18,515 nt of DNA from an uncultured Deinococcales bacterium (GTDB lineage: Bacteria; Deinococcota; Deinococci; Deinococcales; JAAFIG01): the NCBI GenBank assembly GCA_964247135.1, contig CAXTTL010000081.1, forward strand, positions 1 to 18,515, written 5' to 3'. The stretch's first letter is position 1, and every line of letters begins with the position of its first letter. Shown in pieces: positions 3,948 to 18,309 of this stretch. A model generated the notes under the pieces. That model made no database searches. It was not told the origin of the DNA and saw only the letters and a list, made by a program, of their open reading frames with translations. Position numbers and translations under genes: made by a program.

Positions 3948-5692
3948 CAGTTACCACCGCCCGTTTGACCTGCGGGTTGGGTTGCTGGTTGCGTTGTTGG
4001 TGGGGTGCTCGAGCTTCCAGTTGGGTCTGCCCCGATTGCCGCTGGCTTTTTGTGATGGTGTTTAACTGGCGTTGTGCCATCAGCGCCTGTCGCTGCGCCT
4101 TGGCTCGGAGCGGCATTGTTGGCATCTGCTGGAGTTGCGGAATTGTTCGCTCCTGCTGGCGTGGCAGCCTGTCCAGGAGTTCCGTTTTGACCGTCAACGC
4201 TCGAGTTATTTCCTGGTGGCGTAGCGCCGCCCTGAGTGTTGCCCTTCCATTTTCCTGCTCCACCCGAAGGAATGCTTGGAGCGCTCGAGCCTGGAGTGTT
4301 TTGTTGAGTTCCACCTTGACCACTTCCACCCGCAGCACCATTTTGTCCACCTCGAGTCCCGAAGCTGGTTTGCGTTAAATCGGTGGTGACTTTCGCACCC
4401 TCGAGCAGTCCTGGCGGTGGGTTGAGAATCACCTGAGCGCCCGCTGGTACGCCACTGACGGCGGCATCGCTGCCAGCCTGGGCGAGTACGGTGGCGGTCA
4501 GGGATTTGACTTGACCCGCCTGAATCGTGAAGACAAATGTGCGCGTGCCGTCGCTTTGCAACGACGAAATCGGTACGATTGTGCCTTTGGCAAGGTTGAC
4601 GCTGTAATTCACAATGCCAACCACTCCCGAAGCGGGCGCACTGGCATCAATCACTCGAGCAATCAACGGCACGTTTTGCGTGACAGGCGCGGCGGGACGT
4701 TCATCCACTTTGACCTGAAAATGCCCGTTGCCCGCATCAAAGCGGTAAATTCGCCCTGGCACAAAAGCGATGGCGTCGGCTGGCGGAACGCTGAATTTCA
4801 CTTCACGACTGGCGCTCGAGAGTGAGAACGCCGCCGCGCCTGGTGTGACCGCCTGCCCTGGGACGGCGTTGATGGCGGTGATCTGACCCGAAAACGGGGC
4901 TTTCAAGGTGGCGTTTGCCAAATTCAGTTTGGCTTGGCTGAGTTGAATTTGTGCCTGCGAAATGGCGAGTTTGAGTTGTGCCAGACCTTCGCCACCCGCC
5001 CGTTGATTTTGCGACAACGAATCCTGCGCGTTGGAAAGATTCCCCTGTGCCGTCTCGAGCGCGGTTTTGGCATTCTCGAGATCGGTTTTGGAAATCCCGC
5101 CCACCGCGTAGACTTTTTGATCGGAGACATACGTTCTGTTTGCCGCGTCCAAGGCACTTTGCGCGGCTGAGACTTGCTGCTCGAGTTTTTGGGTGGCTTG
5201 CACGGTGTTGGTGTCTTGGCTTTTGAGATTTATTTGTGCGTTCTCGAGCGCCAGTTGCGCGTTCTGGGCGGTCAGTGCCAGTTGCGTGGTATCGAGTTGC
5301 ACCACGGCTTGACCAGCCTGCACGCTGTCGCCGACTTTGACCAAAATCTTGCTGGCAGTGCCAGAGGCTTGCGCGGCAACCTGGCTGACCATCACTGGAA
5401 CAACCGTGCCTGCGCTGTTGCGGTTTGCAGCCAAAGAGCTGGCTTTGACCGTGACGGCTTGAACCGGAATGATCGCATTGCGACCTCCACTTCTGCCGCC
5501 CTGCCGCCCCGAACCGCCCTGAGAAAATGAACCTTGACCTGCACCCGCTCCTGTTTGACTTGCGCCTGCAACCCCATTCTGACTCGGGTTGTGAATCAAG
5601 TAACCGCCAGCGCCAGCCGCCACAACCAAAGCGCCAAAGACCAAATTTCGTCCAACATTACCGCCGCGTTTGGGGGGTTGAGCCGCAATCAT
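3947..5692 (-). CDS. RND periplasmic adaptor (membrane fusion protein) with a long low-complexity C-terminal tail, 581 aa
   Basis: N-terminal TM anchor, lipoyl half-motifs (VKVGDSVQAGQ; LKAPFSGQI), long alpha-hairpin, GGAGG RBS, directly upstream of the RND permease. Confidence 0.93.
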   Translation of the reverse strand: MIAAQPPKRGGNVGRNLVFGALVVAAGAGGYLIHNPSQNGVAGASQTGAGAGQGSFSQGGSGRQGGRSGGRNAIIPVQAVTVKASSLAANRNSAGTVVPVMVSQVAAQASGTASKILVKVGDSVQAGQAVVQLDTTQLALTAQNAQLALENAQINLKSQDTNTVQATQKLEQQVSAAQSALDAANRTYVSDQKVYAVGGISKTDLENAKTALETAQGNLSNAQDSLSQNQRAGGEGLAQLKLAISQAQIQLSQAKLNLANATLKAPFSGQITAINAVPGQAVTPGAAAFSLSSASREVKFSVPPADAIAFVPGRIYRFDAGNGHFQVKVDERPAAPVTQNVPLIARVIDASAPASGVVGIVNYSVNLAKGTIVPISSLQSDGTRTFVFTIQAGQVKSLTATVLAQAGSDAAVSGVPAGAQVILNPPPGLLEGAKVTTDLTQTSFGTRGGQNGAAGGSGQGGTQQNTPGSSAPSIPSGGAGKWKGNTQGGATPPGNNSSVDGQNGTPGQAATPAGANNSATPADANNAAPSQGAATGADGTTPVKHHHKKPAAIGADPTGSSSTPPTTQPATQPAGQTGGGN

Positions 5693-5891: not shown

Positions 5892-5926
5892 AGGAGACAT
5901 CCAAATCGTGGAGTGAAGATGAAGGC
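5892..5926 (-). promoter_or_regulatory. Regulon box 1 plus -10 position, upstream of the RND operon
   Basis: GCCTT CATCTTCACTCCAC gatttggatg TCTCCT on the minus strand. 18 nt (5906-5923) are identical, in inverted orientation, to 13997-14014. Its -10 is the weakest of the set. Confidence 0.75.
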
Positions 5927-5938
5927 TCGAATGCAAAA

Positions 5939-5973
5939 GCCTCCATGATTGCTCCATTTTTGAGTAACATAAT
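5939..5973 (+). promoter_or_regulatory. Regulon box 2 plus -10; leaderless promoter of the orphan response regulator
   Basis: GCCTC CATGATTGCTCCAT ttttgagtaa CATAAT, then 6 nt to ATG 5980. Confidence 0.72.
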
Positions 5974-5979
5974 TTGGTC

Positions 5980-6660
5980 ATGAAAGTTTTGTTGCTCGAA
6001 GACGACAACTCCATACGAATGCCCCTCGCGGCGAATTTGCGCGAAGCGGGGCATGAGGTGATTGAAGCAGATCGGGTCGCCGTTGCCGAACCAATTGCGC
6101 TCGTGCAAAGCTTTGACGTGTTTTTGTTTGATGTTGGTTTACCAGAGGGCAAAGATGCCGGTTTTGGATTGGTACAGCGCTTACGTTCAAAAGGGGTGCA
6201 AACACCTGTTCTGTTCTTGACCGCCCGAGATGCCCCCGAAGATCGCGCTCGAGCGTATGGTGCTGGGGCTGACGATTACTTGCTGAAACCGTTTTTACTG
6301 TCCGAAGTTCAAACCAGACTGAAAGCACTCGTCACTCGAGCGCCAGATTCCGCGCACGGTGTGATGGTGTGCGGAGATTTGCGACTGGATTTTTTCAACA
6401 AAACCGTGTACCTCAACGGCAACCCCGTGCGGCTTTCCAACAAAGAATACGCGACCCTCGAGTTGCTGGCATCCAATCCAGGTCGGGTTTTCAGTCATTT
6501 GGAGTTGATCCAACGCATCTACGATGATGCTCAAATTGTTCCAGCCGTGGTTGATCTGAACGTCATGAACATCCGCCGAAAGCTTGCCGCCTGGACGCTC
6601 GAGACCGTGGATCAGGTGGGCTTTCGCTTTCCATCGTGCGGAGCTATGGCAGGCGATTGA
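5980..6660 (+). CDS. OmpR/PhoB-family response regulator (orphan; paralog of 11125-11790)
   Basis: REC motifs LLEDD, FDVGLP, FLTARD and DDYLLKPF, plus a winged-helix C-terminus. Start set at ATG 5980, 6 nt after CATAAT. Confidence 0.93.
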   Translation: MKVLLLEDDNSIRMPLAANLREAGHEVIEADRVAVAEPIALVQSFDVFLFDVGLPEGKDAGFGLVQRLRSKGVQTPVLFLTARDAPEDRARAYGAGADDYLLKPFLLSEVQTRLKALVTRAPDSAHGVMVCGDLRLDFFNKTVYLNGNPVRLSNKEYATLELLASNPGRVFSHLELIQRIYDDAQIVPAVVDLNVMNIRRKLAAWTLETVDQVGFRFPSCGAMAGD

Positions 6661-6689
6661 AGTTTAATCTCGAGGATCATTGGGGGTTT

Positions 6690-7946
6690 ATGAGCACTGA
6701 AATCAATCCGATTCGCAAAGCATGGTTTACAAATCTCAAACGTGGTTTTCAGGCGCTCGAGGTGCGCAATTACCGACTCTACTGGTTCGGGCAGTTGGTC
6801 AGTTTGACTGGCACTTGGATGCAAACCACCGCGCAAGCCTTGCTGATTCTGCGCTTGACCAAATCGCCTTTTGAGGTTGGTCTGGTCTCGAGCCTGCAAT
6901 TTTTGCCTGCGCTGTTGCTGTCGTTGGTTGGCGGTGTGATTGCAGATCGCGTCAACCGTTTTAAAATGCTGCTGACCACGCAATCGACCTCGCTCGTGAT
7001 CGCCGCCATTTACTCGGCGCTGATCGTGACCAATTCGATTCAACTCTGGGAAGTCTACGTGCTGGCGTTTCTGGGCGGTTTGGTCAACGCGCTCGACCAG
7101 CCCGTGCGTCAATCGTTCTCGGCTTCGCTCGTGCCAAGCGAGCGCCGCGCCAACGCCGTGGCACTCAACTCAATTTTGTTCAATTCCTCGAGAATCATCG
7201 GTCCTGCGCTGGCTGGCGCATTGATTGGTTTTCTGGGCATCGGAGCGATTTACGCCCTCAATGCCCTCAGTTTTGTCGCCGTGCTGATTGGCTTGCTGTT
7301 GATGGATCGCTCGAGTTTTGCCGCTATTCCCGCTCGAGCCGAAAGTTCTGGTTTGGAACGTCTGAAAGAGGGTTTGCGTTATGTTCGCAGCACGCCCGAA
7401 GTGCTGCTGGTGTTGTTGTTCGTTGCCGTGATTGGAACGTTTGGTTATAACTTCAGCATCACCATGCCCTTGATTGGCGGGTTTTTGCTAGGCTTGACCA
7501 ACAATGCCCCAGCCTATGGTCTGCTTGGCGCGGCATTGGGTGTTGGCTCGCTGCTGGCGGCATTTGTCACGGCGTACACCCGAAACGTCAGCCTGAGCCG
7601 CCTGGTGATGGCAGGAACAGCCTTTAGTGTCTTGTTGGGACTGGTTGCTTGGAGTCGAAATTACACCATCTCGGTGGCATTGCTGCTGTTGTTGGGTTTT
7701 GCTGGCGTGACCTTCACCACCAACGCCCAAACCATGATTCAAGTTCGAGTTCCAGACGCGCTGCGCGGACGAGTCTCGAGTTTGTATTTTATGTTGTTCA
7801 TGGGCAGTACCCCCATCGGTGGTTTGCTGACGGGCGCGTTGGCGCACGTGTTTGGTGTCGGTCTGGCGCTCGGGATTTGTGCGGGGTTGTGCCTGGTCGG
7901 GGTTGGTGCGGTCATGACGTATCACAACACGTTGCAACGAACATAA
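6690..7946 (+). CDS. MFS transporter (DHA3 / transmembrane-secretion-effector type)
   Basis: RNYRLYWFGQLVSLTGTWMQ N-terminus, GGVIADRVNR motif A, VPDALRGRV, about 12 hydrophobic segments. Start at MSTEINP after GGGGG. Confidence 0.92.
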   Translation: MSTEINPIRKAWFTNLKRGFQALEVRNYRLYWFGQLVSLTGTWMQTTAQALLILRLTKSPFEVGLVSSLQFLPALLLSLVGGVIADRVNRFKMLLTTQSTSLVIAAIYSALIVTNSIQLWEVYVLAFLGGLVNALDQPVRQSFSASLVPSERRANAVALNSILFNSSRIIGPALAGALIGFLGIGAIYALNALSFVAVLIGLLLMDRSSFAAIPARAESSGLERLKEGLRYVRSTPEVLLVLLFVAVIGTFGYNFSITMPLIGGFLLGLTNNAPAYGLLGAALGVGSLLAAFVTAYTRNVSLSRLVMAGTAFSVLLGLVAWSRNYTISVALLLLLGFAGVTFTTNAQTMIQVRVPDALRGRVSSLYFMLFMGSTPIGGLLTGALAHVFGVGLALGICAGLCLVGVGAVMTYHNTLQRT

Positions 7947-8044
7947 GTAAAACCACTAGGTTGACAAGGGTCAAATTTCGCCTCAACAATCACAAATTTT
8001 AACATTCTGACTCGAGCAACTGAACGTGATTTTTGTTTCGTCGC

Positions 8045-8079
8045 GCCTTCACCCTCACTCCACTTTGCTGCGTCATTCT
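8045..8079 (+). promoter_or_regulatory. Regulon box 3 plus -10
   Basis: GCCTT CACCCTCACTCCAC tttgctgcgt CATTCT; 17/19 identical to box 1; upstream of the 8153 gene. Confidence 0.75.
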
Positions 8080-8152
8080 GAAACAAAGACTTCAAACTCG
8101 AGCTTGAAAGCTGATAACTGGGTTTGGTCAACATGATCCTGGAGGCTTGACA

Positions 8153-8446
8153 ATGGAATTGCGCATCAACAATCAAAAGGTCAACGTGTTGCTATGCTCG
8201 GACGAATCTTTAAGTGCTGAAGAGATCAAAATCTTTGAACGCTTTGACCACATTTTAAGAGCCAATCCCAAATTCCAAGCGCGTTATCCAAGGGCGTGCC
8301 TCGAGTCGGCGGCATTTGACCCAGATCAAAAATCGAAAATGCGTTTGTCGTACACGTGCAAACATGGGCGCGTCGAATTTGAAGGGTCGTTGGCATTTAT
8401 GACCGCCATTGATTTCAAGCACCACACCGTGATGCTGGCAATCTGA
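8153..8446 (+). CDS. Hypothetical cytoplasmic protein, 97 aa
   Basis: GGAGG RBS at 8141-8145 before ATG 8153, preceded by regulon box 3. No family recognised. Confidence 0.72.
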   Translation: MELRINNQKVNVLLCSDESLSAEEIKIFERFDHILRANPKFQARYPRACLESAAFDPDQKSKMRLSYTCKHGRVEFEGSLAFMTAIDFKHHTVMLAI

Positions 8447-8464
8447 AACTCGAGCCAGTTTTCG

Positions 8465-9367
8465 TTATGCACTGAATTTTGGGTTTGTTATTTTGGTCTC
8501 GAGCTTTTGGTTTGAAACATCATCGTACTTTGGGTAAAGCGCGTACTTGATGCCGTTTCGACCATTGTGCTTGACCAAATACATCAGTTGATCCGCCATT
8601 TCAAGCACTTGGTTTGCCGTGGTGGGCGTTTGCAAACAGGTCAATACGCCGATGCTAAACGTGATTCTATCGGCTTGCACCACTTGTGCCAGCCGACTCC
8701 GAACCCGTTCCAGGACAACTCGAGCGTTCCCCGCGTCAGTCTCTGGCAACAACACGGCAAATTCATCGCCACCCAACCGAGCCAACGTGTCGCTTGGGCG
8801 CAACGTCGAGCTTATGGTGGCGGCAATCAAACGCAACAAGCCATCGCCTGCATGATGCCCGAGCGAATCATTGACGGTTTTAAAATGGTCAACATCAATG
8901 TAGGCAAGCGTGAAAGCTCGCCCATGACGACCCACACGGTTTAATTCAGATTCGATGGTTTCCATAAAGGCTCGAGCGTTGGCTGCACCCGTCAAACTGT
9001 CCACCCTCGAGAGGTTGCGTTCTCGTGCCAGGGATCGTTTGAGTGACTCGAGCACCAATACCACAGCCGTCAACTCGAGCAAGCGCACGGTGAGATTCCA
9101 AGCGGCAAGTAGCAACCCGTGAGAACTGCTGAGCGCTGGCGTATCGACCACAAACCAAACAATGGCGCTCAAGACAGTGCCGCTTAAGGTGACAGCAAAG
9201 CTCGAGTTCCAGACCATGAACGCCACCGGCACAAAATAAAATGGCGCGAGCGTCACCTCTTGCCCAGTGATAAAATCAAGCCCACCAATGATCGGGACAC
9301 TCAGGAACGCCAAAACAGTCCAAGTGTCGGATCGTTTGAGGCTGAGGTTTTGAAAAAAGTTATCCAT
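8465..9367 (-). CDS. Membrane-anchored diguanylate cyclase (GGDEF), 300 aa
   Basis: About four N-terminal hydrophobic segments, DSLTGAAN, YIDVDHFKTVND, intact RLGGDEF with the RxxD I-site (RPSD); GGAGG RBS at 9377-9381. Confidence 0.93.
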   Translation of the reverse strand: MDNFFQNLSLKRSDTWTVLAFLSVPIIGGLDFITGQEVTLAPFYFVPVAFMVWNSSFAVTLSGTVLSAIVWFVVDTPALSSSHGLLLAAWNLTVRLLELTAVVLVLESLKRSLARERNLSRVDSLTGAANARAFMETIESELNRVGRHGRAFTLAYIDVDHFKTVNDSLGHHAGDGLLRLIAATISSTLRPSDTLARLGGDEFAVLLPETDAGNARVVLERVRSRLAQVVQADRITFSIGVLTCLQTPTTANQVLEMADQLMYLVKHNGRNGIKYALYPKYDDVSNQKLETKITNPKFSA

Positions 9368-9424
9368 ATTCCAGAGCCTCCATGACCGCCAACTCGAGAT
9401 GCAGGTTCTATCTCATTGCAGTTC

Positions 9425-9459
9425 ACCTTAAAAGTTATTTGTGGAGTGGGCGTGAAGGC
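9425..9459 (-). promoter_or_regulatory. Regulon box 4 plus -10, upstream of the GGDEF gene
   Basis: GCCTT CACGCCCACTCCAC aaataacttt TAAGGT on the minus strand. Confidence 0.78.
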
Positions 9460-9488
9460 TCGAGCTTGGTATTTGGTACGTGCACAAG

Positions 9489-9528
9489 AAATAAAAATCG
9501 AGCAACACCAAAACATGGCGTTGCTCGA
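9489..9528 (-). terminator. Intrinsic terminator of the lipoprotein gene
   Basis: Minus-strand RNA UCGAGCAACGCCA-UGUUU-UGGUGUUGCUCGA (13-bp stem with one G-U pair) followed by UUUUUAUUU, about 25 nt after the stop at 9554. Confidence 0.75.
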
Positions 9529-9553
9529 GATGTGTAAAACTAAAATTTAAAAC

Positions 9554-10021
9554 TTACTGTACATTGACATTGATGGTGACCGTTCCAAGCTCGACACCAC
9601 TGGTTGCAGTTCCAGAGGCATCATTGAGCGTGATCATAACAGGGTACGAACCTACTGCTGTGCCTGCGGCTGCCGTCACGTTGAAGCTGAGGGTATCAAC
9701 CACAGCACCCGAACTGGCGCTGTTCAATGCCACCTGAATGCCACTTGGAGACTGCACATCAGAAATACTGACCGTACCCGTAGCATCAAAACCCGTTGAA
9801 CCTGCAACAGCACTTTGCACCAATTCGGACAACGCCTGCGTGGTGTTTGCAGCCAAAGTGCTCGAGTCTCCAGCTCCCAAGGTCACGGTTGGGGCGGCGA
9901 TAACGGTACCGCTTTGATCCACCGCCGAAAGCGCTCCTGCGCTTGGCGTGGCTGTTGAGCAGGCTGCCATCGAGAGTGCGAGAATAACCGAACCGAGAAC
10001 TGGCGCAAAGGCTTTTTTCAT
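9554..10021 (-). CDS. Putative lipoprotein with a predicted Ig-like beta-sandwich domain, 155 aa
   Basis: AAGGAG RBS before ATG 10021; MKKAFAPVLGSVILALSMAA-C lipobox; beta-rich mature part (FNVTAAAGTAVGSYPVMITL); paralog of 10318-10779. The fold is inferred. Confidence 0.82.
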   Translation of the reverse strand: MKKAFAPVLGSVILALSMAACSTATPSAGALSAVDQSGTVIAAPTVTLGAGDSSTLAANTTQALSELVQSAVAGSTGFDATGTVSISDVQSPSGIQVALNSASSGAVVDTLSFNVTAAAGTAVGSYPVMITLNDASGTATSGVELGTVTINVNVQ

Positions 10022-10031
10022 AATGATCTCC

Positions 10032-10066
10032 TTGCTCGAGGGTCGCTCGAGACTTGTTGAAAGGGC
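10032..10066 (-). repeat. Duplicated 5' leader element, copy A
   Basis: 33/35 identical to 10792-10826; contains two CTCGAG 5 nt apart just upstream of the RBS. Confidence 0.9.
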
Positions 10067-10122
10067 GGTTGTCGTGTTTCGAGTCATGACCGATCTGGCT
10101 TTTGGTGAGCGCTTACAAGGTC

Positions 10123-10157
10123 AGTATGTAAGTGTTTGGTGGATTGAACGTGGGGTT
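10123..10157 (-). promoter_or_regulatory. Regulon box 5 plus -10, upstream of the lipoprotein gene
   Basis: AACCC CACGTTCAATCCAC caaacactta CATACT; 10123-10183 aligns without gaps (48/61) to 10946-11006. Confidence 0.75.
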
Positions 10158-10254
10158 TTTTGGTCTGTTTGGCTTCATTTTTGTTTGGTAATTCCAAATT
10201 GAATGCTTTGTTTTGACGTGAGAAGTTGCAATAAAAATCTCGAGTTTGGAATTC

Positions 10255-10288
10255 AAAAAAAAGTGGTGACGTTTTTGATACGTCACCA
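10255..10288 (-). terminator. Intrinsic terminator of the 10318-10779 gene
   Basis: Perfect 9-bp stem TGGTGACGT/ACGTCACCA with a 7-nt loop; the A8 tract at 10255-10262 is a U-tract on the minus strand. Confidence 0.8.
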
Positions 10289-10317
10289 AGTAGGAGGGGA
10301 AAGTTCTGGGGTAATTC

Positions 10318-10779
10318 TTAGTACACGCTGACATCAATGGTAACGATGCTTTGCTCGGTGTGGTCTGCATTTTCAAGCGTGACGAGCACCACGTATGATC
10401 CTCTTGCTGTGCCGGCAGGAGCTGTAACCATAAAGTCCAACTTGTCTGCCGCAGTCCTGCTGCTCGCATCGGCGAGGCTCACACCGAAGCCGCCATCGAC
10501 ATTGACGATGCTCAAACCACCATTGGCACTGTTGTTCAGTTCGCCCAGACTCCAGTGTGGCACATAAGCGGTTAACATTTCCGAGCTGCCGAAATCCAAG
10601 ACTGCGTTATGGCGAGATTTGTGGAAGCCCTCGGTGTCAAAAGTAACTACAGGTGCAGATGTTGGAATGCCAGAATCATCAACTGCGGTGACTTGTCCGA
10701 TAGAACTACCAGCGAATGCTCCAGCACTGAGTGAAATTGCGAGGACTGAACCGAGGACGGATGCGATAACTTTGTTCAT
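10318..10779 (-). CDS. Secreted protein with a predicted Ig-like domain, 153 aa
   Basis: AAGGAG RBS; Sec signal MNKVIASVLGSVLAISLSAGAFA; shares blocks with the lipoprotein (TAVDDSG..SAPVVT; DFMVTAPAGTARGSYVVLVTLENA; VTIDVSV). Confidence 0.84.
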   Translation of the reverse strand: MNKVIASVLGSVLAISLSAGAFAGSSIGQVTAVDDSGIPTSAPVVTFDTEGFHKSRHNAVLDFGSSEMLTAYVPHWSLGELNNSANGGLSIVNVDGGFGVSLADASSRTAADKLDFMVTAPAGTARGSYVVLVTLENADHTEQSIVTIDVSVY

Positions 10780-10791
10780 GGTGTTGCTCCT

Positions 10792-10826
10792 TTGCTCGAG
10801 GGCTGCTCGAGACTTGTTGAAAGGGC
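10792..10826 (-). repeat. Duplicated 5' leader element, copy B
   Basis: 33/35 identical to 10032-10066. Confidence 0.9.
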
Positions 10827-10858
10827 TTGGTGTCGATGGTGCGCGGGTTTTGATTGAC

Positions 10859-10897
10859 TTATTGCTGGTACTGCCTCGGGTTTTTCGTTTGGGTCAT
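10859..10897 (-). CDS. Possible 12-aa upstream ORF (MTQTKNPRQYQQ)
   Basis: Perfect AAGGAG (10903-10908) 5 nt before ATG 10897, TAA at 10859-10861; lies between box 6 and the 10779 gene. Confidence 0.35.
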   Translation of the reverse strand: MTQTKNPRQYQQ

Positions 10898-10945
10898 TCA
10901 GTCTCCTTCGTTGAGTCGCAGGTGGTTCTTCCTGCTGATGGGTTT

Positions 10946-10980
10946 AGTATGCGAGGATTTGGTGGATCGAACATGTAGCG
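10946..10980 (-). promoter_or_regulatory. Regulon box 6 plus -10, upstream of the secreted-protein gene
   Basis: CGCTA CATGTTCGATCCAC caaatcctcg CATACT on the minus strand. Confidence 0.75.
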
Positions 10981-11112
10981 ATTTAGTCTGTTTGGCTTCA
11001 TCTTTGCGTTATTTTTTGTTAACTGATTGCCTCTCAATTTTTGAGTTTTTGGTGTCTGTCACGCCTTCAAAAGCAATTCTCGAGCCTCGAGTTTGCAACC
11101 TACCCAAAGCGG

Positions 11113-11118
11113 TATACT
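11113..11118 (+). promoter_or_regulatory. -10 element of a leaderless TCS operon promoter
   Basis: TATACT 6 nt before ATG 11125; no Shine-Dalgarno; no regulon box at the 10-nt spacing. Confidence 0.7.
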
Positions 11119-11124
11119 TCATTC

Positions 11125-11790
11125 ATGCGAATTTTGGTGCTCGAGGATGATCCCGCAATTCGTTTGCCGTTGGCGGCAGGATTGCGCGAGGCTGGTTACG
11201 CGGTGGACGAGTGTGACCGTGCACTCGAGGCTGAAGGTTTGGCTTTGATGTACCCGTTTGATGTGCTGGTTGTGGATGTGCGCCTGCCAGAAGGTCCAAA
11301 CGCGGGTTTTGAATTGGTTGGGCGGCTTCGCAGCCAAAACCTAAAAACATCAGTCTTGTTTTTAACCGCCCGCGACGCGCTCGAGGATCGAATTCATGGG
11401 CTTGACGCGGGTGGCGACGATTACCTGGTCAAACCGTTTCATTTGGGCGAGGTCCTGGCGCACGTGCGGGCTTTGCTGCGCCGAAATCGTCCCGATGTGC
11501 AAACCACGCTCGAGTTGCGCGGTTTAAAAATTGATTTCACGGCGCGTTCGGTGTTGTTTCAGGGTGTGGCGGCAAAACTTTCGGCAAAAGAATACGCGGT
11601 GCTCGAGTTGCTTTCCTCGCATCCTGGTCGAATTTTTTCTCGAGACGAAATTTCTGAACGGGTTTGGGATGGTTCGTTCGAGGCGGTCACGAACGTTGTC
11701 GATGTTTACGTCAAGAACGTTCGCAAAAAGACTGTGGATTGGGTGATCGAAACCATCCGCAACATGGGTTACAGGTTTCCCAGCGAATGA
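11125..11790 (+). CDS. OmpR/PhoB-family response regulator, 221 aa
   Basis: MRILVLEDD, VDVRLP, FLTARD, DDYLVKPF; recognition helix NVVDVYVKNVRKK and wing ETIRNMGYRF; ATGA overlap with the kinase. Confidence 0.95.
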   Translation: MRILVLEDDPAIRLPLAAGLREAGYAVDECDRALEAEGLALMYPFDVLVVDVRLPEGPNAGFELVGRLRSQNLKTSVLFLTARDALEDRIHGLDAGGDDYLVKPFHLGEVLAHVRALLRRNRPDVQTTLELRGLKIDFTARSVLFQGVAAKLSAKEYAVLELLSSHPGRIFSRDEISERVWDGSFEAVTNVVDVYVKNVRKKTVDWVIETIRNMGYRFPSE

Positions 11791-13130
11791 CACCGCTCAA
11801 CGAACGGCTTAGTCCTCGTACTTTAATTGGGTTATTCTCGAGTCTGGTGCTGCTGTTGTCATTGGCGACGTTGACGGTGGTTTCTGGTTTGACACTGCAA
11901 GCCTCAAACTTACGGGACATTGATGCGGTCTTGAGCGAACAATCACGAATTATTGTGACCGAGGCGCAGTCGAAAACCAACCTCAACATCAAAGACCCGA
12001 CGGTTGTGCTCGAGGCTTTGCGACTTCGCACTGGCTCGAGTGTGGCGGCGGTTTACCGCGATCAAAGACCAGTCTGGAGAGGTGGTTCGATCAAAGCACC
12101 AAATGAACCATTTGATCTCAATTTTTTCTCGAATCCGGCAAGACGGTCTGTGGTGACCAGCAACGATTGGCGTGTGCTTAGTCGCCGCGACAATGATGTG
12201 ATCGTGCAGGTCGCGCAACCGCTGGCAGTGTTGAACTCAACCATGCTCAACTATTGGCGCAACACCGCCATTGGAACGGCTGTGATTGCCTTGCTGGCTG
12301 GTCTTTTCATCAATTATATGCTCGGGCGTTTGATTCGACCACTCGGCTTGCTGGCGGCTCGAGTTCAACATTTGGATTCAGACAAACCCATTCCTGCCAC
12401 GCGGGTCAAAGGTGAAATTGGCATTTTGGCAAGGGGTTTGGAAAAAAGCATTACAGATTTAAAAGAAACCCGACTTCGAGAATCACGGTTTCTTGCCGAT
12501 GCCAGCCACGAGTTGCGCACACCAATCACGGCACTGCTGGCAGACCTCGAGCACAGTTTGTCGCGCACACGATCATCGGAGGATTTGCTGGGGGTCATCA
12601 CCAGATCGCAAAAATCGGCGGTGCATTTGCGCGATCTGGCTTCAAACCTGCTGGCACTCTCGCGTACTGGGGCGGGCGCTGCACCCGTTCGGGTGGCAGT
12701 TGATGTGCTCGAGGTGGCGCTCGAGGTCACAGACCGCCTTGTGCCTTTGGCGGCGCAAAAAGGTTTGGGCTTGGATGCCGACGGCGATTTGGCAATCATT
12801 CAGGGCGATCCGGTTTTGTTGGCGCGGATGCTCGAGAATCTGGTTTCAAACGCGATCAAGTACACCAGCGCGGGCAGCATCAGCGTTCATGTCGCAACCC
12901 AACCCGATAGCGTTATTTTGACCGTGAAAGACACGGGCATCGGCATTCCGAACGACAAACTCGAGCATTTATTCGAGCCGTTCAAACGCGCCCACCTCGA
13001 GCACCGCGACGGTTTTGGACTTGGGCTAGCTGTGGTCAAAAGTGTGACTGAGGGGCATGGTGGACACGTGCGCCTCTCGAGTGAAGTCGGGATTGGCACG
13101 AATATTGAGGTTGTCTTGCCAAAAAATTGA
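11787..13130 (+). CDS. Sensor histidine kinase (2 TM, HAMP, HisKA, HATPase), 447 aa
   Basis: H-box FLADASHELRTPI, N-box ENLVSNAIKY, G1 DTGIGI, F-box LFEPF, G2 GFGLGL; starts at ATG 11787 overlapping the regulator stop. Confidence 0.95.
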   Translation: MTPLNERLSPRTLIGLFSSLVLLLSLATLTVVSGLTLQASNLRDIDAVLSEQSRIIVTEAQSKTNLNIKDPTVVLEALRLRTGSSVAAVYRDQRPVWRGGSIKAPNEPFDLNFFSNPARRSVVTSNDWRVLSRRDNDVIVQVAQPLAVLNSTMLNYWRNTAIGTAVIALLAGLFINYMLGRLIRPLGLLAARVQHLDSDKPIPATRVKGEIGILARGLEKSITDLKETRLRESRFLADASHELRTPITALLADLEHSLSRTRSSEDLLGVITRSQKSAVHLRDLASNLLALSRTGAGAAPVRVAVDVLEVALEVTDRLVPLAAQKGLGLDADGDLAIIQGDPVLLARMLENLVSNAIKYTSAGSISVHVATQPDSVILTVKDTGIGIPNDKLEHLFEPFKRAHLEHRDGFGLGLAVVKSVTEGHGGHVRLSSEVGIGTNIEVVLPKN

Positions 13131-13159
13131 GTTCACAAAACGGTAGTCTGAAATTGAAT

Positions 13160-13432
13160 TCAGTGATTGTTGACGGTTATGCTGTAAGCAATTAACAATG
13201 CCAAAACCATGCCCAAACCCAGGCTTTCAATCAGCACCTCGAGCGATGTGATGTGAAATCCGTAAACGTCATTCAAAAGGTACGTGGGCATCAGGCTGAA
13301 AATTCCAACCGCCAGCGAAAAGATGACAGCCAGCGATCCATACCAAAGCACGGATTGCAACACCACAATCAAATTTCTGTGGTCGCTCGAGTGGGCTATG
13401 GGTTGATGAACTGGGATTTGTAAACTGTTCAT
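13160..13432 (-). CDS. Small membrane protein (2 predicted TM), 90 aa
   Basis: GGAGG RBS at 13439-13443, two hydrophobic stretches, preceded by regulon box 7. Confidence 0.75.
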   Translation of the reverse strand: MNSLQIPVHQPIAHSSDHRNLIVVLQSVLWYGSLAVIFSLAVGIFSLMPTYLLNDVYGFHITSLEVLIESLGLGMVLALLIAYSITVNNH

Positions 13433-13450
13433 GGTGTACCTCCACCAGGA

Positions 13451-13485
13451 ATGTTGCGCCCCTCACATGGATTGACCGTGAAGCC
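13451..13485 (-). promoter_or_regulatory. Regulon box 7 plus -10
   Basis: GGCTT CACGGTCAATCCAT gtgaggggcg CAACAT on the minus strand. Confidence 0.72.
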
Positions 13486-13520
13486 ATAAAAAATCAGACC
13501 GCACAATGGCGGTCTGATTT
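13486..13520 (-). terminator. Intrinsic terminator of the basic exported-protein gene
   Basis: Perfect 12-bp inverted repeat AAATCAGACCGC-acaatg-GCGGTCTGATTT (13491-13520) running into a U-tract on the minus strand. Confidence 0.85.
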
Positions 13521-13547
13521 GGGGGTGGAAGCATTTAAAGCAAAAAC

Positions 13548-13850
13548 TTATTTGGATTTTGTGTTGCCAGTACGAATTTTGCTGCCACGAGCCTTGCTGG
13601 TGCGTGCTTTGCTGGTGCGTGCTTTGCTGGTGCGTGCTTTGCTGACACGACGCTTGTTGGTGCGGGTGCTTGCCTTGTTGCGGTTGTGGCGCTTGGTTTG
13701 AACGCTCTTTTTGCTGTGCGTAGTCTTGGCAACCGTGGTGACAACGGGTTTGGTGGCAACGGCTTTGCTGGTTGGTGCAGCGTTGGCAATCATGACACTC
13801 GAGAGGGCGGCGGCGAGGATCAAACCAATGGTACGGACTTTGATGTTCAT
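13548..13850 (-). CDS. Exported, highly basic, low-complexity protein (Asr-like), 100 aa
   Basis: AAGGAG RBS; signal peptide MNIKVRTIGLILAAALSSVMIANA; mature part rich in K/R/T/S with no acidic residues and SKART repeats. Confidence 0.8.
   Translation of the reverse strand: MNIKVRTIGLILAAALSSVMIANAAPTSKAVATKPVVTTVAKTTHSKKSVQTKRHNRNKASTRTNKRRVSKARTSKARTSKARTSKARGSKIRTGNTKSK
13594..13644. repeat. 15-bp coding tandem repeat, 3.4 copies
   Basis: TTGCTGGTGCGTGCT x3 plus TTGCTG; encodes (SKART)n on the minus strand. Confidence 0.95.
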
Positions 13851-13918
13851 AAGAACTCCTTTTTCTTGAACCTCGAGCGATCCACCGCTGCTGCGGTGGT
13901 CTTCTTTGGTCTGGGCGT

Positions 13919-13953
13919 AGTTTCTATCTTTCAGATGGACTACACATGAAACA
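13919..13953 (-). promoter_or_regulatory. Regulon box 8 plus -10, upstream of the Asr-like gene
   Basis: TGTTT CATGTGTAGTCCAT ctgaaagata GAAACT on the minus strand. Confidence 0.62.
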
Positions 13954-13993
13954 CCGTTCGAGGTTTGATGTTCGGTTTGACCTGGCTGGGTTT

Positions 13994-14028
13994 GCTTTCA
14001 TCTTCACTCCACGAAGAGCTTGCAAACT
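13994..14028 (+). promoter_or_regulatory. Regulon box 9 plus -10; probably leaderless promoter of the GluR0-like gene
   Basis: GCTTT CATCTTCACTCCAC gaagagcttg CAAACT, then 7 nt to ATG 14036. Confidence 0.78.
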
Positions 14029-14035
14029 TCGCCAC

Positions 14036-15199
14036 ATGAAAACCAAAATTCTCTCCAGACAAAATCCGACCCGTCCATCAAGCCACCTCAGCTCGAGTCT
14101 CGAGGATCAAGGACACAGAACGATGCTGGCATTTATGGCGTGGTTCATGGCACTTTTCCTGATTTTCAGCCCTAATGTTTTTGCCCAGCAAGCGCCGCAA
14201 AAAACCTTGCGCGTGGCGATCAAACCGCTGACCCCGTTCGTCACCAGCGCCGCCTCTGGGGTGGGTTATGAAGGCTTTAGCATCGATCTTTGGAATGCGA
14301 TAGCGGCAAAAAACGGTTGGAAAACCGAGTTTCAAATCAAAAAGAGTGTTCAAGAAGTCATCGCGTCGGTGCAACAAGGGCAAGCCGATGTCGGTATTTC
14401 GGGCATCAGCATCACCAAAGAACGCGAGTCAATACTGGATTTTAGTCTGCCAATGTTCAACGCGGGTTTGCAGGTGGTCGTGCCGAGCCATCCCGCGTTT
14501 GACCCATTGCAGGCACTCAGCAACCTGTTCTCGCCGCAACTCGAGTTTATTGGTTTGCTGATTTTTGGCTGCATCTTGGTTGCCGGTCACGTGATTTGGT
14601 TGGTCAACCGCAAGAATCCAGATTTCCCCAAAGGTTATCTGCCTGGGGTGCTCGAGGGCATGTGGTGGGGGGTGGTGAACTTTCCGCAAAGCAGCCTGGG
14701 GAGCGAAAACCCCAAATCCTGGTTGGGACGAGGCTTGAGCGTGATTTGGTTGGTGCTTGGGGTTGGACTGCTGGCAAACTTTACCGCCAACGCCACGGCA
14801 ACCTTGACCGTGCAACAGATTCAAGGTTCGATTCAGGGCGTCTCGGACTTGCCTGGCAAGCGCGTTCTGACGGTTAAGGGAACGACCTCGGAATCGTACT
14901 TGAATGCCAGCAACATCAAGAACTCGAGCGTTGCCACCGTTGAAGATGCTCTGACGCAACTCGAGGCAGGTCAAGCCGATGCTGTGGTTTACGACGCGCC
15001 TGTGCTGCAATATTTTGCCAGTCACGACGCCAAGGGCAAAATTGCGGTGATCGGCAGCGTTTTTAAACCCGAGTATTATGGCATTGCGCTGGCAAACAAA
15101 AGCCTGCTGCGCAAACCCATCAATGAAACCCTGACCGACTTAAGTTCCAGCGGCAATTTGCTGGTCTTGCAGCAAAAATGGTTTGGCGATGGCAATTAA
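14036..15199 (+). CDS. GluR0-like ligand-gated ion channel (split family-3 amino-acid-binding domain around a TM-P-TM pore)
   Basis: Signal-like segment; S1 (EGFSIDLW, ISITKERESILDFSLP); TM1; pore helix EGMWWGVV; TM2 ending ANFTANATATLT; S2 (KGTTSE, AVVYDAPVL, YYGIAL). Start at 14036 (leaderless) or 14123. Confidence 0.85.
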   Translation: MKTKILSRQNPTRPSSHLSSSLEDQGHRTMLAFMAWFMALFLIFSPNVFAQQAPQKTLRVAIKPLTPFVTSAASGVGYEGFSIDLWNAIAAKNGWKTEFQIKKSVQEVIASVQQGQADVGISGISITKERESILDFSLPMFNAGLQVVVPSHPAFDPLQALSNLFSPQLEFIGLLIFGCILVAGHVIWLVNRKNPDFPKGYLPGVLEGMWWGVVNFPQSSLGSENPKSWLGRGLSVIWLVLGVGLLANFTANATATLTVQQIQGSIQGVSDLPGKRVLTVKGTTSESYLNASNIKNSSVATVEDALTQLEAGQADAVVYDAPVLQYFASHDAKGKIAVIGSVFKPEYYGIALANKSLLRKPINETLTDLSSSGNLLVLQQKWFGDGN

Positions 15200-15270
15200 A
15201 CTCACCTCAAGGTAGGGGATTTTAAACTCGAGCCTGTGATTTTTCCCGAGTCAAACGGTTGGTTCTCGAG

Positions 15271-15276
15271 TATGCT
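15271..15276 (+). promoter_or_regulatory. -10 element of a leaderless deacetylase promoter
   Basis: TATGCT 6 nt before ATG 15283; no RBS; no regulon box. Confidence 0.65.
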
Positions 15277-15282
15277 GAAAAA

Positions 15283-16503
15283 ATGCGATTCTGGCAATTC
15301 ACAGCGGGTATTGCCACCCTGCTGGTTGGGGCGGTTCTGGCTCAAAGCACTCGTCAACCCTTGCCAACCGTTCAACCCCCTGGCGCAGTGCAACCAATTG
15401 CACCTGGCTATCGCCCGACGGCTGGGCTGCCGCAAATCAAACTCGAGCCAGCCATTCCAGAGGTCAAAAAAGTCGAGTACGCCAGCAACGGTTTTATCGA
15501 GGTGGCTCATGCTTTGGTGCTCGAGCCAAGACGCGAGGCTGGGGAGCAAAACGATTTCAGGTTGGCACACGCGGCGGTCAGCGCCAGCTACGCGGCGCGT
15601 CCTGGTTTGGCGGAGGTCGATGTCAGCGTCTATGAAGCCGAGAGCTTTGACGGCATTGGTGGTCCACTACCGCGCTTGACCGCCGGCGTGCCTCGAGCGG
15701 AGTTGCTCAATTTTTTAAACGCCAAACCGAATGCCAACAATGGCTACGACCGTCAATGGCTCAATCCAAACATCACCGCGCCCAAGCGAGCGCCGCAGCC
15801 AGTGCTCGAGCAAACGCCTGTTTTTCACGGCACGACCCCGCAGTTGCGATCCATGCAGGTTCAACAGCTTGCCGCACAAGTTTCAGGCGGCGCGAAGGGT
15901 GGCTTGTACTTTTTTGGCAACTCGAGAAAACCTTATGTTGCCCTGACTTTTGACGACGCCCCGCACCCGTTGTTCGAGCCTTTGTTGCTTGACTCTTTGC
16001 GACGGGCGGGTATCAAAGCCACATTTTTTTGCATTGGACGAAATGCTCTGGCGTACCCGTATTTTGTTAAAGACATGGTGAGAGACGGTCATGAGATTGG
16101 CAATCACACTTTCCATCACGTTCGCTTGCCCAAGCTGCCCGCAATTGAAGTTCAAGACGAACTCGAGCAAACCAATGCCTTGCTGCAAAAAATTTCTGGT
16201 CAAACCATTCGCTACTTTCGTCCTCCTGGCGGTGAATATTCGGCGCAAACGCTAAAAATCGCCACCAGCCTGGGTTTGATTACCACCTTCTGGACGGACG
16301 ACCCAGGTGATTTTGACAACCCAGGCGATAAAGTGCTCGAGTCGCGCCTGAAAGCCAAATTGCGTCGCGGTGGCATAGTTTTACTTCATGACAACGTGCT
16401 CGAGACGATTCAGATTGTCGTGCCGTTTTTGAAGGTGGCAAGTCAAGAACGCTTTGATCTTGTGCCAATCGGTCAACTCGATGCCCAAGATGGCAGACCT
16501 TAA
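15283..16503 (+). CDS. Exported polysaccharide/peptidoglycan deacetylase (CE4, NodB domain) with an unknown N-terminal domain, 406 aa
   Basis: Signal peptide MRFWQFTAGIATLLVGAVLA; CE4 motifs TFDDAP, GNHTFHH, FRPPGG, DPGDF, LLHD. Confidence 0.92.
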   Translation: MRFWQFTAGIATLLVGAVLAQSTRQPLPTVQPPGAVQPIAPGYRPTAGLPQIKLEPAIPEVKKVEYASNGFIEVAHALVLEPRREAGEQNDFRLAHAAVSASYAARPGLAEVDVSVYEAESFDGIGGPLPRLTAGVPRAELLNFLNAKPNANNGYDRQWLNPNITAPKRAPQPVLEQTPVFHGTTPQLRSMQVQQLAAQVSGGAKGGLYFFGNSRKPYVALTFDDAPHPLFEPLLLDSLRRAGIKATFFCIGRNALAYPYFVKDMVRDGHEIGNHTFHHVRLPKLPAIEVQDELEQTNALLQKISGQTIRYFRPPGGEYSAQTLKIATSLGLITTFWTDDPGDFDNPGDKVLESRLKAKLRRGGIVLLHDNVLETIQIVVPFLKVASQERFDLVPIGQLDAQDGRP

Positions 16504-16516
16504 ACGCAACAATCGA

Positions 16517-16551
16517 GACTCCATCTTCGCTCCATTTTTGTGCCGCATCCT
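16517..16551 (+). promoter_or_regulatory. Regulon box 10 plus -10
   Basis: GACTC CATCTTCGCTCCAT ttttgtgccg CATCCT, upstream of the 16609 gene. Confidence 0.75.
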
Positions 16552-16608
16552 GATGAGCGAAGAACGCCAGCCCGAGAGACACTCGGAACGGCAGAAAAAG
16601 GAGTCAAG

Positions 16609-16971
16609 ATGAGCTTTCAAGATTTGGCAAACAACGCACAACAAACCGCCGCCCAAGGTCTCGAGACCGCCAAGCAAGCCACCGAGGGCTTGGTCAGTAA
16701 CCCGGGAGCGACCCTCGAGGGTGGTGCGGCGGCAGCCGGTCAAAGCGCACAAAGCGCCGTAGCAGATATCAAACAGGTGGTCACCAACCCAGGTGATATC
16801 CTGCACAGCACCGAAGATACCCTCAAGCATGGTTTTGAAAGCGCCACCGGTGCGGTCGGCAGTGTCGTGAAAGAAGCCGAAGAAGCCGTGAAGCATGGCA
16901 TTGAGAGCATCGGCAACATGGTTTCTGGAATTTTTGGTGGCGGCAAACACGAAGAAGAACCAAAAGCGTAA
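16609..16971 (+). CDS. Ala/Gly-rich amphipathic-helix protein (LEA/apolipoprotein-like composition), 120 aa
   Basis: AAGGAG RBS before ATG 16609; internal repeats VSNPG/VTNPG, and LKHGFES/VKHGIES 22 residues apart. Confidence 0.78.
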   Translation: MSFQDLANNAQQTAAQGLETAKQATEGLVSNPGATLEGGAAAAGQSAQSAVADIKQVVTNPGDILHSTEDTLKHGFESATGAVGSVVKEAEEAVKHGIESIGNMVSGIFGGGKHEEEPKA

Positions 16972-16976
16972 TCCGC

Positions 16977-17195
16977 ATGAGACAAATTCGTTGGTTTATA
17001 TTCATACTGGTCAGCGCTGCGGTGTTGTTGTTTGGTCTGAGCAACCTGATTCCGCTTCGCGTCAACTTCCTGTTCTTTTACGCTTGGGTCAACCTGCTCG
17101 CCTTGATCGCCGGAACCTTTGTTCTGGGCGCACTGGTCGGTCTGATTCTTGGACTGTGGCATGACCACAAAGCCAGACCCGCAACCATTCGCTAA
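16977..17195 (+). CDS. Small membrane protein, LapA/DUF1049-like, 72 aa
   Basis: Two TM segments with the pattern LFGLSNLIPLRVNFLF...LIAGTFVLGALVG; starts 5 nt after the previous stop. Confidence 0.72.
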   Translation: MRQIRWFIFILVSAAVLLFGLSNLIPLRVNFLFFYAWVNLLALIAGTFVLGALVGLILGLWHDHKARPATIR

Positions 17196-17271
17196 ATCCT
17201 AAAACCGAATTGGGTCGCTTGAATTTTCTCGAGCGACCTTTTGTGTTGTGTCTGATGCCATGCTCTGAACT

Positions 17272-17306
17272 GACTTCACGTTGACTCCATCAAACCAACG
17301 CAAACT
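17272..17306 (+). promoter_or_regulatory. Regulon box 11 plus -10; leaderless promoter
   Basis: GACTT CACGTTGACTCCAT caaaccaacg CAAACT, then 7 nt to ATG 17314. Confidence 0.78.
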
Positions 17307-17313
17307 AAAGACC

Positions 17314-18018
17314 ATGAAGCCCGCAACCCTCAATCTAAAGCCTGCCTTCAGCAACCTGCCAGATGAATCCGACCAAAGCCCAGGTGTGCCACTCGAGCCG
17401 TTGTGGTACGCACGCTTGGCAATCGTGGTCATTATCGTGCTGCAAATTGCGCTCAGCCAACGGTTCACGCTCGGTCCAAACTGGTTGCTGCCGATGCTCG
17501 AGATGCTGATGTTGATTCCGCTGGCGTTTACCCCTCGAGACCATGTGATCGGCAAGCACCGTTCAATGCGTGTCGTGGCAATCGCTTTGATTGCCCTGAC
17601 CAATGTTTCAAACATGATTTCACTTGTCATTTTGGTGCGCTCATTGCTGCACGGCAACAAAGCTGGCGGCACAACCCTATTGCTCGAGGCACTGAATATT
17701 TGGTTCACGAACATGATTATTTTCGCTTTGTGGTACTGGGAACTTGATCAGGGTGGTCCGCATGAACGCGGTCAGGTTGGTTGTGAAGCACCAGATTTTT
17801 TGTTCACCCAAATGGGCAGCCCTCAATTTGCCAAACCAGGCTGGCGTTCTGGTTTTATGGATTATCTGTTTTTGTCCTTTACCAACGCCACCGCCTTCAG
17901 CCCAACCGACACTTTGCCGCTCTCGAGTTGGGCAAAGTTACTCATGATGGTTCAGTCTGGCACGTCACTTTTGACCGTGGCGTTGGTTGCCAGCCGTGCC
18001 GTGAATATTTTGACCTGA
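17314..18018 (+). CDS. DUF1345-like membrane protein, 234 aa
   Basis: Motifs IWFTNMIIFALWYWELDQGGP, PDFLFTQM, DYLFLSFTNATAFSPTDTLPL, SRAVNIL. Confidence 0.8.
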   Translation: MKPATLNLKPAFSNLPDESDQSPGVPLEPLWYARLAIVVIIVLQIALSQRFTLGPNWLLPMLEMLMLIPLAFTPRDHVIGKHRSMRVVAIALIALTNVSNMISLVILVRSLLHGNKAGGTTLLLEALNIWFTNMIIFALWYWELDQGGPHERGQVGCEAPDFLFTQMGSPQFAKPGWRSGFMDYLFLSFTNATAFSPTDTLPLSSWAKLLMMVQSGTSLLTVALVASRAVNILT

Positions 18019-18045
18019 GCGTTCGCCTAAAAAAGGAGTGAGAAA

Positions 18046-18309
18046 ATGATTGAAAGTATTCCAGATATTGCCGTGGTTGTTATTTTGGGTTTCGTGCTGT
18101 TCGGTGCAAAAAACATTCCCGATATTGGACGCAACCTGGGGCGCGGCTTGCGCGAATTTAGGGGCGGTATGAAAGACCTGAAAAATGAAATGGATTCGAT
18201 CCTCGAGCCACAAACATACGAGGTTCAAACCGTGACCGCCCGTGCGACAGACCCAATTACGCCCACCGTCATAAGTGTCGAAGATCAAGCTAAACGGCTC
18301 GAGTCATAG
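18046..18309 (+). CDS. tatA: Twin-arginine translocase TatA/TatE family subunit, 87 aa
   Basis: Short N-terminal TM ending in LFG, amphipathic helix KNIPDIGRNLGRGLREFR; AAGGAG RBS. Confidence 0.9.
   Translation: MIESIPDIAVVVILGFVLFGAKNIPDIGRNLGRGLREFRGGMKDLKNEMDSILEPQTYEVQTVTARATDPITPTVISVEDQAKRLES

Follow-up and report, generated by a model that had tools for sequence, protein, structure and literature searches.

Why do eleven intergenic sites on one contig of an uncultured Deinococcales bacterium share a single promoter-like layout, and which regulator would read them? The window analysed here is the whole of contig CAXTTL010000081.1 (18,515 nt; C81 in our labels, in which C, G, and L denote contigs, genomes, and loci), part of a draft genome of 5.09 Mb in 386 contigs that is 84% complete and that its protein relatives place in Deinococcota. 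It encodes a response regulator of the OmpR/PhoB family (RR1) with its adjacent sensor histidine kinase (HK1), and a second response regulator (RR2), among transporters and small exported proteins (Table 1). Our preferred answer, in which we have reasonable confidence, is that the 11 sites are promoters of the primary sigma factor, each switched by an activator of the OmpR/PhoB family, namely the RR1/HK1 pair.

Eleven box elements are clustered on one contig

An earlier note on this DNA had described 11 elements of shared layout, intergenic and aimed at gene starts, and we recovered all of them: every 35-mer (11/11) fits the pattern [5 nt]-CAY-N6-TCCAY-N10-hexamer, on the strands listed in Table 1. 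The core is a repeat of the half-site YTYCAY with an 11-bp period, placed 10 nt upstream of the hexamer. Recounting the hexamers gave the same figures as before, i.e., T at the end in 11/11 and A at position 2 in 10/11, with C as first base in 8/11. The others begin with T (2/11) or G (1/11), and the hexamer of site 5892 is poor (TCTCCT). All 11 elements lie outside called genes, intergenic DNA amounting to 13% of the window, and all point at a gene start. Three sit 6, 7, and 7 nt before an ATG (RR2, the GluR0-like channel, and DUF1345, respectively), again as counted previously, and the remaining eight lie 18 to 199 nt ahead of a start that has a purine-rich, Shine-Dalgarno-like stretch. The promoters at 10123 and 10946 arose by duplication of a single one (79% alike across 61 nt; the encoded proteins are 39% identical), and the window therefore holds 10 independent sites rather than 11.

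Scanning the genome revealed that this density is particular to the window. Within the window we counted the core CAY-N6-TCCAY 14 times (3 of them inside genes) versus 1.03 expected per 18.5 kb (283 genome-wide), and the core plus NANNNT at the same spacer occurs 10 times versus 0.15 expected. For the core with the final T, no other contig exceeds 2 matches per 18.5 kb (of the 385, 321 had 0, 60 had 1, and 4 had 2), and in 300 order-3 Markov simulations the count averaged 0.39 and never exceeded 2. As the motif was derived from these same 11 sites, Poisson values overstate the enrichment. Leave-one-out matrix scores of the sites ranged from 14.5 to 32.7 bits, and for 9/11 sites no equal score was found anywhere in the other 5.07 Mb, the two others being site 9425 (equaled in 2 places) and site 13919 (equaled in 10 places). 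On the strength of the contig counts, the simulations, and the leave-one-out scan, we rejected both a chance origin and a general genome-wide motif. Classical −35/−10 promoters were likewise rejected, since 0/15 consensus matches coincide with any box.

Eleven looser copies of the box were found on other contigs of the same genome. Window and dispersed boxes differ in TCCAY (11/11 versus 4/11) and in T at position 11 (9/11 versus 1/11), and the greater tightness of the window boxes favors a dedicated local reader. With these looser copies, the regulon probably takes in genes outside the cluster. Of the co-located regulon proposed earlier, the clustering stands; the window motif is a tight local version of a box that occurs across Deinococcota.

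The repeat stands above a probably weak −10 element

Leaderless transcription is common in this phylum, reaching 60% in Deinococcus deserti (PMC4007540), and in D. radiodurans a TANNNT −10 element alone acts as a promoter, with its conserved bases mattering (PMC12340547). In the present genome, NANNNT before start codons peaks at 6 nt (408/2700 open reading frames [ORFs]), with T as first base in 274/408 and C in 40/408, versus C in 8/11 of the boxed hexamers. The most fitting reading of the elements is as promoters for primary sigma, the 11-bp-period repeat standing in for the −35 element above a weak −10. With C as their first base, the C-starting boxed hexamers would be weakened −10 elements, too weak alone and needing help.

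Not every promoter of the cluster is built in this manner. The −10 of RR1 (TATACT, 11113 to 11118, + strand) starts with T, lies 6 nt before the ATG, and has no box upstream, so that the RR1 promoter is probably constitutive and leaderless. The −10 of the polysaccharide deacetylase (TATGCT, 15271 to 15276) is also 6 nt before its ATG and unboxed. The earlier view of a box in place of −35 gained independent comparative support; the RR1/HK1 pair and the deacetylase, having T-starting leaderless −10 elements without a box, fall outside the shown targets.

That the element could instead be a promoter for an extracytoplasmic function (ECF) sigma factor, with TCCAY as its −35, is suggested by seven Sigma70_r2 matches in the genome and by the off-consensus first base of the −10. 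We regard this as very improbable: the upstream half-site repeats with a fixed 11-bp period, the hexamer retains both A2/T6 and the leaderless spacing of primary sigma, and promoters of the sigma-70 family usually have a spacer longer than 10 nt.

The box tends to accompany the RR1 clade in relatives

RR1 has a receiver and a Trans_reg_C domain above the Pfam cut-off, its D51, T81, and K103 are invariant, and a HisKA kinase is adjacent; both RR1 and HK1 are below every NCBIfam cut-off listed. A first spacer test was partly circular, and the counts given here come from 32 loci fetched by RR1 homology without the motif and sorted by recognition helix (L038, L289, and L290, which lack a response regulator, were left out). 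CAY boxes followed by a hexamer 10 nt downstream were present at 13/18 loci whose regulator has an N-x-x-[DE]-V-Y-x-K-N helix (286 kb, in which 19 sites lie), versus 0/3 loci with an R-N helix and 0/11 with other helices; the reversed pattern gave 0. In these loci, 19 sites have a half-site gap of 6 and any other gap occurs at most once, and NANNNT is found at spacer 10 in 19/25 cores. The loci are related to one another and the counts are not independent, so the co-occurrence is support rather than a p-value.

Counted over whole genomes, matches in most relatives outnumber the reversed control (e.g., G008, 17 versus 1; G007, 10 versus 1; G005, 12 versus 2), and an order-wide sample gave a match in 84/121 genomes, mostly few per genome. 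The range of the box reaches Thermaceae, where it precedes response regulators, kinases, helix-hairpin-helix (HhH) proteins, PIG-L deacetylases, and DUF5009, and where variants of CAG type stand ahead of TatA, a PAP2 phosphatase, and the polysaccharide deacetylase. Within the family, boxed genes include secreted HhH proteins, YidB, fasciclin, AlgF, and DUF1003, as well as a low-affinity iron permease, a Castor/Pollux channel, and a glycogen-debranching gene. Homologs of window genes are boxed too, i.e., MFS (77%), DUF1345 operons (82% and 72%), TatA, and the response regulator itself. Taken together, we consider RR1 (11125) the likeliest reader of the boxes.

Several further observations concern these relatives. 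Among boxed targets, small secreted HhH (ComEA-like) proteins recur most consistently, a genome often having several of them (L035:10864-11181, L141:4340-4660, and loci L036, L120, L121, L123, L124, L286, and L287). One homologous response regulator gene has a boxed promoter together with an unboxed T-starting one (L021:6298), and another has two tandem boxed promoters (L286:9434/9568, also L282). A Thermus brockianus plasmid locus is RR1-homologous and has one weak CAG-type site. In Chloroflexota and Actinomycetota, too, similar boxes occur in the neighborhood of distant kinase homologs (L055:2446, L089:7579, and L053:5617), one of them before a cation P-type ATPase, and for this reason the box architecture may be wider than Deinococcota. 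A wing Arg selecting an A/T tract after the half-site was considered and rejected, in that position 21 is A/T at 11/11 window sites, 7/12 G008 sites, and 3/10 Thermaceae sites, and these relatives share the Arg.

Other candidate readers of the boxes

A number of observations weigh against RR1 as the reader. Five of the 18 K-N helix loci have no CAY site, RR1 itself is unboxed, unlike the response regulators of G008 and of Thermaceae relatives, and enrichment is absent in G001 (4 versus 4) and weak in G009 (11 versus 8). In addition, G002 and G003 have no close RR1 relative and lack the kinase-regulator-box-HhH block found on contig C5 (the flanks are adjacent on one contig), and they still give box matches above controls (5 versus 1 and 9 versus 2, respectively); values in G012 (5/0), G014 (4/2), and G016 (8/2) are similar. 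Boxes in G002 and G003 may be relics or sites for a different OmpR protein, or may reflect incomplete assemblies (82% and 88%). Since these two genomes keep boxes without either regulator, the assignment to RR1 is not clean.

The C5 block holds RR3/HK3, a core-genome paralog of the RR1/HK1 pair that might read the boxes too, or instead, the cluster then being an accessory block in an existing regulon. RR3 (60% to RR1) is a real rival because it has the same four base-contact residues, within the same recognition helix, and an adjoining box. The His-box region of HK3 is near-identical to that of HK1, the 11 dispersed boxes lie on other contigs, and in G005 and G007, which have near-perfect TCCAY boxes, the sole RR1 match exceeding 50% identity is an RR3-type regulator. 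In contrast, the window sites consistently differ from the dispersed sites and the cluster has its own intact regulator/kinase pair, and we judge a reading by RR3 unlikely. The HK3-RR3-box-HhH block is cleanly missing between conserved flanks in G002 (C117) and G003 (C751), and therefore this module was gained or lost as a unit.

Less likely still is another winged-helix regulator, i.e., an OmpR protein encoded on C164 (helix SNVVDVYIGY) or a SARP/BTAD activator. The boxes persist in G002 and G003 without a K-N regulator, the C164 regulator adjoins a same-spaced TTCAG repeat, and the genome has 29 BTAD matches; in contrast, the 17 window proteins scanned include no BTAD match, CAY boxes accompany K-N regulators at 13/18 loci versus 0/14 others, and 11/11 window sites end in CAY, not CAG. 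Same-spaced TTCAG/YCAG-type boxes were observed in G000 at C164 6582 (beside the C164 regulator), C83 5987, C104 70, C121 1239, and C50 7227, and these probably constitute a second OmpR regulon.

RR1 thus remains our preferred reader. The choice of the 11125-13130 pair, as made originally, is strengthened by the helix co-occurrence and weakened by the identical helix of RR3 and by the boxes of G002 and G003.

RR2 is a boxed paralog with altered DNA-contact residues

RR2 is 51% identical to RR1 overall (59% in the receiver and 43% in the DNA-binding domain) and retains the phospho-Asp, Thr, and Lys, with the recognition helix PAVVDLNVMN. At the four positions with which PmrA contacts bases, RR2 has P/A/L/M and its 71% ortholog has P/A/V/E, both thus carrying the N188A change, which in PmrA abolishes binding and activation (PMC10570014). 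Because its base-contact residues are lost, including the N188A equivalent, RR2 is unlikely to read the box. The earlier account listed RR2 among the box-promoted genes, in keeping with its box; the loss of its base-reading residues speaks against a role as binder of this box.

Two observations could still be taken to favor RR2 as the binder, or the boxes as repressor sites: RR2 has a box, as an autoregulated gene would, and a box that covers a −35 can serve repression. Set against these are the residue change that kills PmrA binding, the absence of an RR2 ortholog among 60 relatives that have boxes, and the weak C-starting −10 elements, which favor activation; we give this reading hardly any weight.

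Because a box precedes RR2 and no kinase gene adjoins it, we tentatively suggest that it could provide induced negative feedback on HK1/RR1, acting as a phosphate sink or as an inactive heterodimer partner. The main alternative is a changed DNA specificity of RR2. Sisterhood of RR1 and RR2 is weakly supported (95/71, long branch), which also counts against our overall reading.

Proposed mechanism and its significance

From the motif, its spacing, its co-occurrence with a regulator clade, and the residue changes, we infer binding, activation, and start sites as follows. HK1 would sense an extracytoplasmic cue and phosphorylate RR1, whereupon dimers of phosphorylated RR1 (RR1-P) would occupy the two YTYCAY half-sites in head-to-tail order, the half-sites being separated by one helical turn and together spanning about −39 to −23. 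Standing in place of a −35 element, RR1-P would let polymerase use the C-starting −10. RR1/HK1 would be made from an unboxed −10, and the box would induce RR2, which would in turn damp the response.

As to the cue, alignment of the HK1 sensor revealed no clustering of His or Met residues. A fold predicted from the single sequence was poor, and the fold predicted from the alignment (pLDDT 84) matched generic PDC domains (Z 7.4 to 9.5), none of them distinctive; the PhoQ sensor match (Z 8.0) was tied with other PDC folds, and the acidic patch is weaker in HK1 than in relatives. Copper as the stimulus was not supported by the model scores or the targets, and phosphate was not supported by the PhoB scores or the targets. 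The putative targets include channels, efflux systems, enzymes acting on surface sugars, TatA, and small exported proteins, and a homologous Thermus locus has Nramp and VIT genes; these point to envelope or ionic stress, e.g., acid or cation imbalance, a proposal that we hold to be about evenly balanced.

The widest form of our proposal is a Deinococcota envelope-stress system, extending from this family to Thermaceae, in which a broken −10 first base is rescued by an activator box and RR2 is a built-in DNA-blind brake; we put this forward as doubtful when taken as a whole. If a bare −10 suffices to fire, a phylum-specific problem arises that a broken first base plus a box would solve, and such an arrangement could be a source of tightly gated promoters. 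Few two-component regulons with a defined binding site are available in Deinococcota, and this one is readable from sequence. The same box near homologs in Thermaceae, including the Thermus brockianus plasmid locus, makes the proposal testable in cultivable hosts. It would tie DUF1345, DUF1003, YidB, secreted HhH proteins, and DUF5009 to one candidate signal, and a DNA-blind, induced paralog serving as feedback would, if true, be an unusual circuit.

Genes and genomic setting of the cluster

The box promoters and genes of the window are listed in Table 1. Among the labels that the targets had been given before, the GluR0-like channel is borne out by Pfam, the Ig-like label has weak leads, and the Asr-like and LEA labels derive from composition. 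The basic exported protein showed no similarity to one boxed K/H-rich Thermaceae protein with which it was compared. On the CusA/CzcA model, the RND permease scored 259/701, lower than on multidrug models. The gene at 1 to 390 had no family match and may encode a GH63 glucosidase. Between box 1 and the adaptor gene lies a 48-codon ORF (5689 to 5835, − strand) with a good Shine-Dalgarno sequence; its stop overlaps the adaptor ATG, and the ORF spans a CTCGAG-rich inverted sequence.

Table 1. Box promoters and genes of the 18,515-nt window
Feature	Position	Strand	Remarks
Box promoter 1	5892..5926	−	Toward MFP-RND; distance to adaptor (MFP) start 199 nt, to the upstream 48-codon ORF 56 nt; hexamer poor
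Box promoter 2	5939..5973	+	RR2-MFS, leaderless (6 nt); back to back with box 1
Box promoter 3	8045..8079	+	97-aa ORF without known family
Box promoter 4	9425..9459	−	Membrane GGDEF protein
Box promoter 5	10123..10157	−	Exported protein 1; duplicate of box 6
Box promoter 6	10946..10980	−	Exported protein 2
Box promoter 7	13451..13485	−	90-aa membrane protein
Box promoter 8	13919..13953	−	Basic exported 100-aa protein; weakest by leave-one-out
Box promoter 9	13994..14028	+	GluR0-like channel, leaderless (7 nt); best site
Box promoter 10	16517..16551	+	LEA-like/LapA pair
Box promoter 11	17272..17306	+	DUF1345-tatA, leaderless (7 nt)
Gene, 5' part	1..390	−	Downstream of RND; the neighbor of the boxed glycogen-debranching gene on C22 is 80% alike
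RND permease	603..3947	−	Multidrug-type models score best, all below cut-offs
RND periplasmic adaptor	3947..5692	−	TIGR01730 above cut-off
RR2	5980..6660	+	Orphan paralog of RR1
MFS_3 transporter	6690..7946	+	77% homolog in G008 directly boxed
97-aa ORF	8153..8446	+	Without family; no usable Atlas match
Membrane GGDEF protein	8465..9367	−	Family scans
Exported protein 1	9554..10021	−	Ig-like by weak Atlas leads only (scores < 0.9)
Exported protein 2	10318..10779	−	Paralog of exported protein 1
RR1, OmpR/PhoB-family response regulator	11125..11790	+	Helix TNVVDVYVKN; proposed activator
HK1 sensor kinase	11787..13130	+	One extracytoplasmic PDC/Cache-like domain, HAMP, HisKA, HATPase
90-aa membrane protein	13160..13432	−	Without family
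Basic repeat-rich exported protein	13548..13850	−	"Asr-like" from composition only; no Pfam match
GluR0-like channel	14036..15199	+	SBP_bac_3, Lig_chan, Lig_chan-Glu_bd
Polysaccharide deacetylase	15283..16503	+	Unboxed; syntenic with the regulator/kinase pair in many relatives
LEA-like 120-aa protein and LapA-domain protein	16609..17195	+	LEA label from composition; LapA below cut-off
DUF1345 and TatA	17314..18309	+	DUF1345 below cut-off

The composition of the window is typical for the genome (GC 52.8%, equal to the median; CTCGAG 6.05/kb versus a median of 6.63), and its tetranucleotide distance ranks 122 of 148; given these ordinary values, a foreign-origin island was not supported. CTCGAG occurs at 6.7/kb genome-wide and falls within the spacer of some boxes. 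An Rfam search of the window returned no RNA family match.

The right end of C114 matches window positions 4 to 130 (94.5%) and holds the remainder of the first window gene, beyond which stands one more TCCAY box, the twelfth, ahead of a gene for a short-chain dehydrogenase. The end match and the twelfth box indicate that the cluster probably reaches about 3 kb further left, onto C114, perhaps as a strain variant. This probable continuation (G000:C114 10246-15466) stops just past a 606-aa gene that resembles glmS; the glmS 3' end is a known insertion hotspot. At the other end of the window, positions 18405 to 18515 are a multi-copy repeat that lies at contig ends in several relatives, and the assembly breaks there.

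A related population (X2 records 9 and 10) keeps the cluster in the same gene order at roughly 89 to 96% identity. As a block, the cluster was absent from 18/18 family genomes examined, 12 of which had scattered matches, and a search for loci related to it returned distant kinases and distant response regulators only.

Comparison with known systems

The earlier note did not recognise the motif as a described binding site, and our literature search, supplements and most subscription papers aside, likewise found no description of the box or regulon in Deinococcota. The same phylum is represented by DrRRA, RadSR, and DrtSR (PMC6300522) and by DhqSR (PMC12907556), and the accessible sections of these accounts hold no such box, the DhqR motif being placed in Fig. 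S8 of its paper. The genes for DhqS and DhqR are non-adjacent and the system uses Tyr phosphorylation (PMC12907556), whereas RR1 and HK1 are adjacent. An HssR repeat considered for comparison was unconfirmed in the accessible part of PMC3968170.

BfmRS of Acinetobacter baumannii is a functional analogue, being an OmpR-type direct-repeat regulon of envelope and osmotic/desiccation stress genes (PMC11806355). Its TTACA repeats have a 10-bp period and are dispersed genome-wide, whereas YTYCAY has an 11-bp period and is clustered here. As for PhoP, the IMG name for homologs, RR1 scores 139/336 on the PhoP equivalog.

CopR sites come close to the half-site: the site in Corynebacterium glutamicum, TGAAGATTTnnTGAAGATTT, is CTTCA at an 11-bp period on the other strand (PMC3140484), and that of Synechocystis is TTCAT-N4-5-TTCAT (PMC4182526). 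TIGR01387 and TIGR01386 give the best NCBIfam scores of RR1 and HK1, yet these are below cut-off (175/279 and 170/293, respectively). CopR regulons have one or two sites, compared with eleven in this cluster, and neither a copper oxidase nor a P-type ATPase was found in the window.

The closest parallels lie in promoter design. For PhoB, the 11-bp period is alike and the pho box at pstS spans −25 to −41, compared with about −23 to −39 here (PMC10570014); RR1 is below both PhoB equivalog cut-offs (150/296 and 149/270), and no pst or phosphatase genes are among the window genes. The best PDB sequence match to RR1 is PmrA/BasR (PDB 8jo2, 4s04/4s05), in which two hexamers 5 nt apart replace the −35 element and contacts are made via T187, N188, V192, and H195 (PMC10570014). 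T187, N188, and V192 are common to PmrA and RR1 (3/4), H195 being K in RR1. The PmrA half-site is XTTAAY versus YTYCAY here, RR1 scores 160 versus the PmrA cut-off of 330, and none of the 17 to 18 window proteins scanned is encoded by a lipid A modification gene. RR1 thus fails the cut-offs of PmrA, PhoB, and CopR, and the promoter design is that of PmrA and PhoB.

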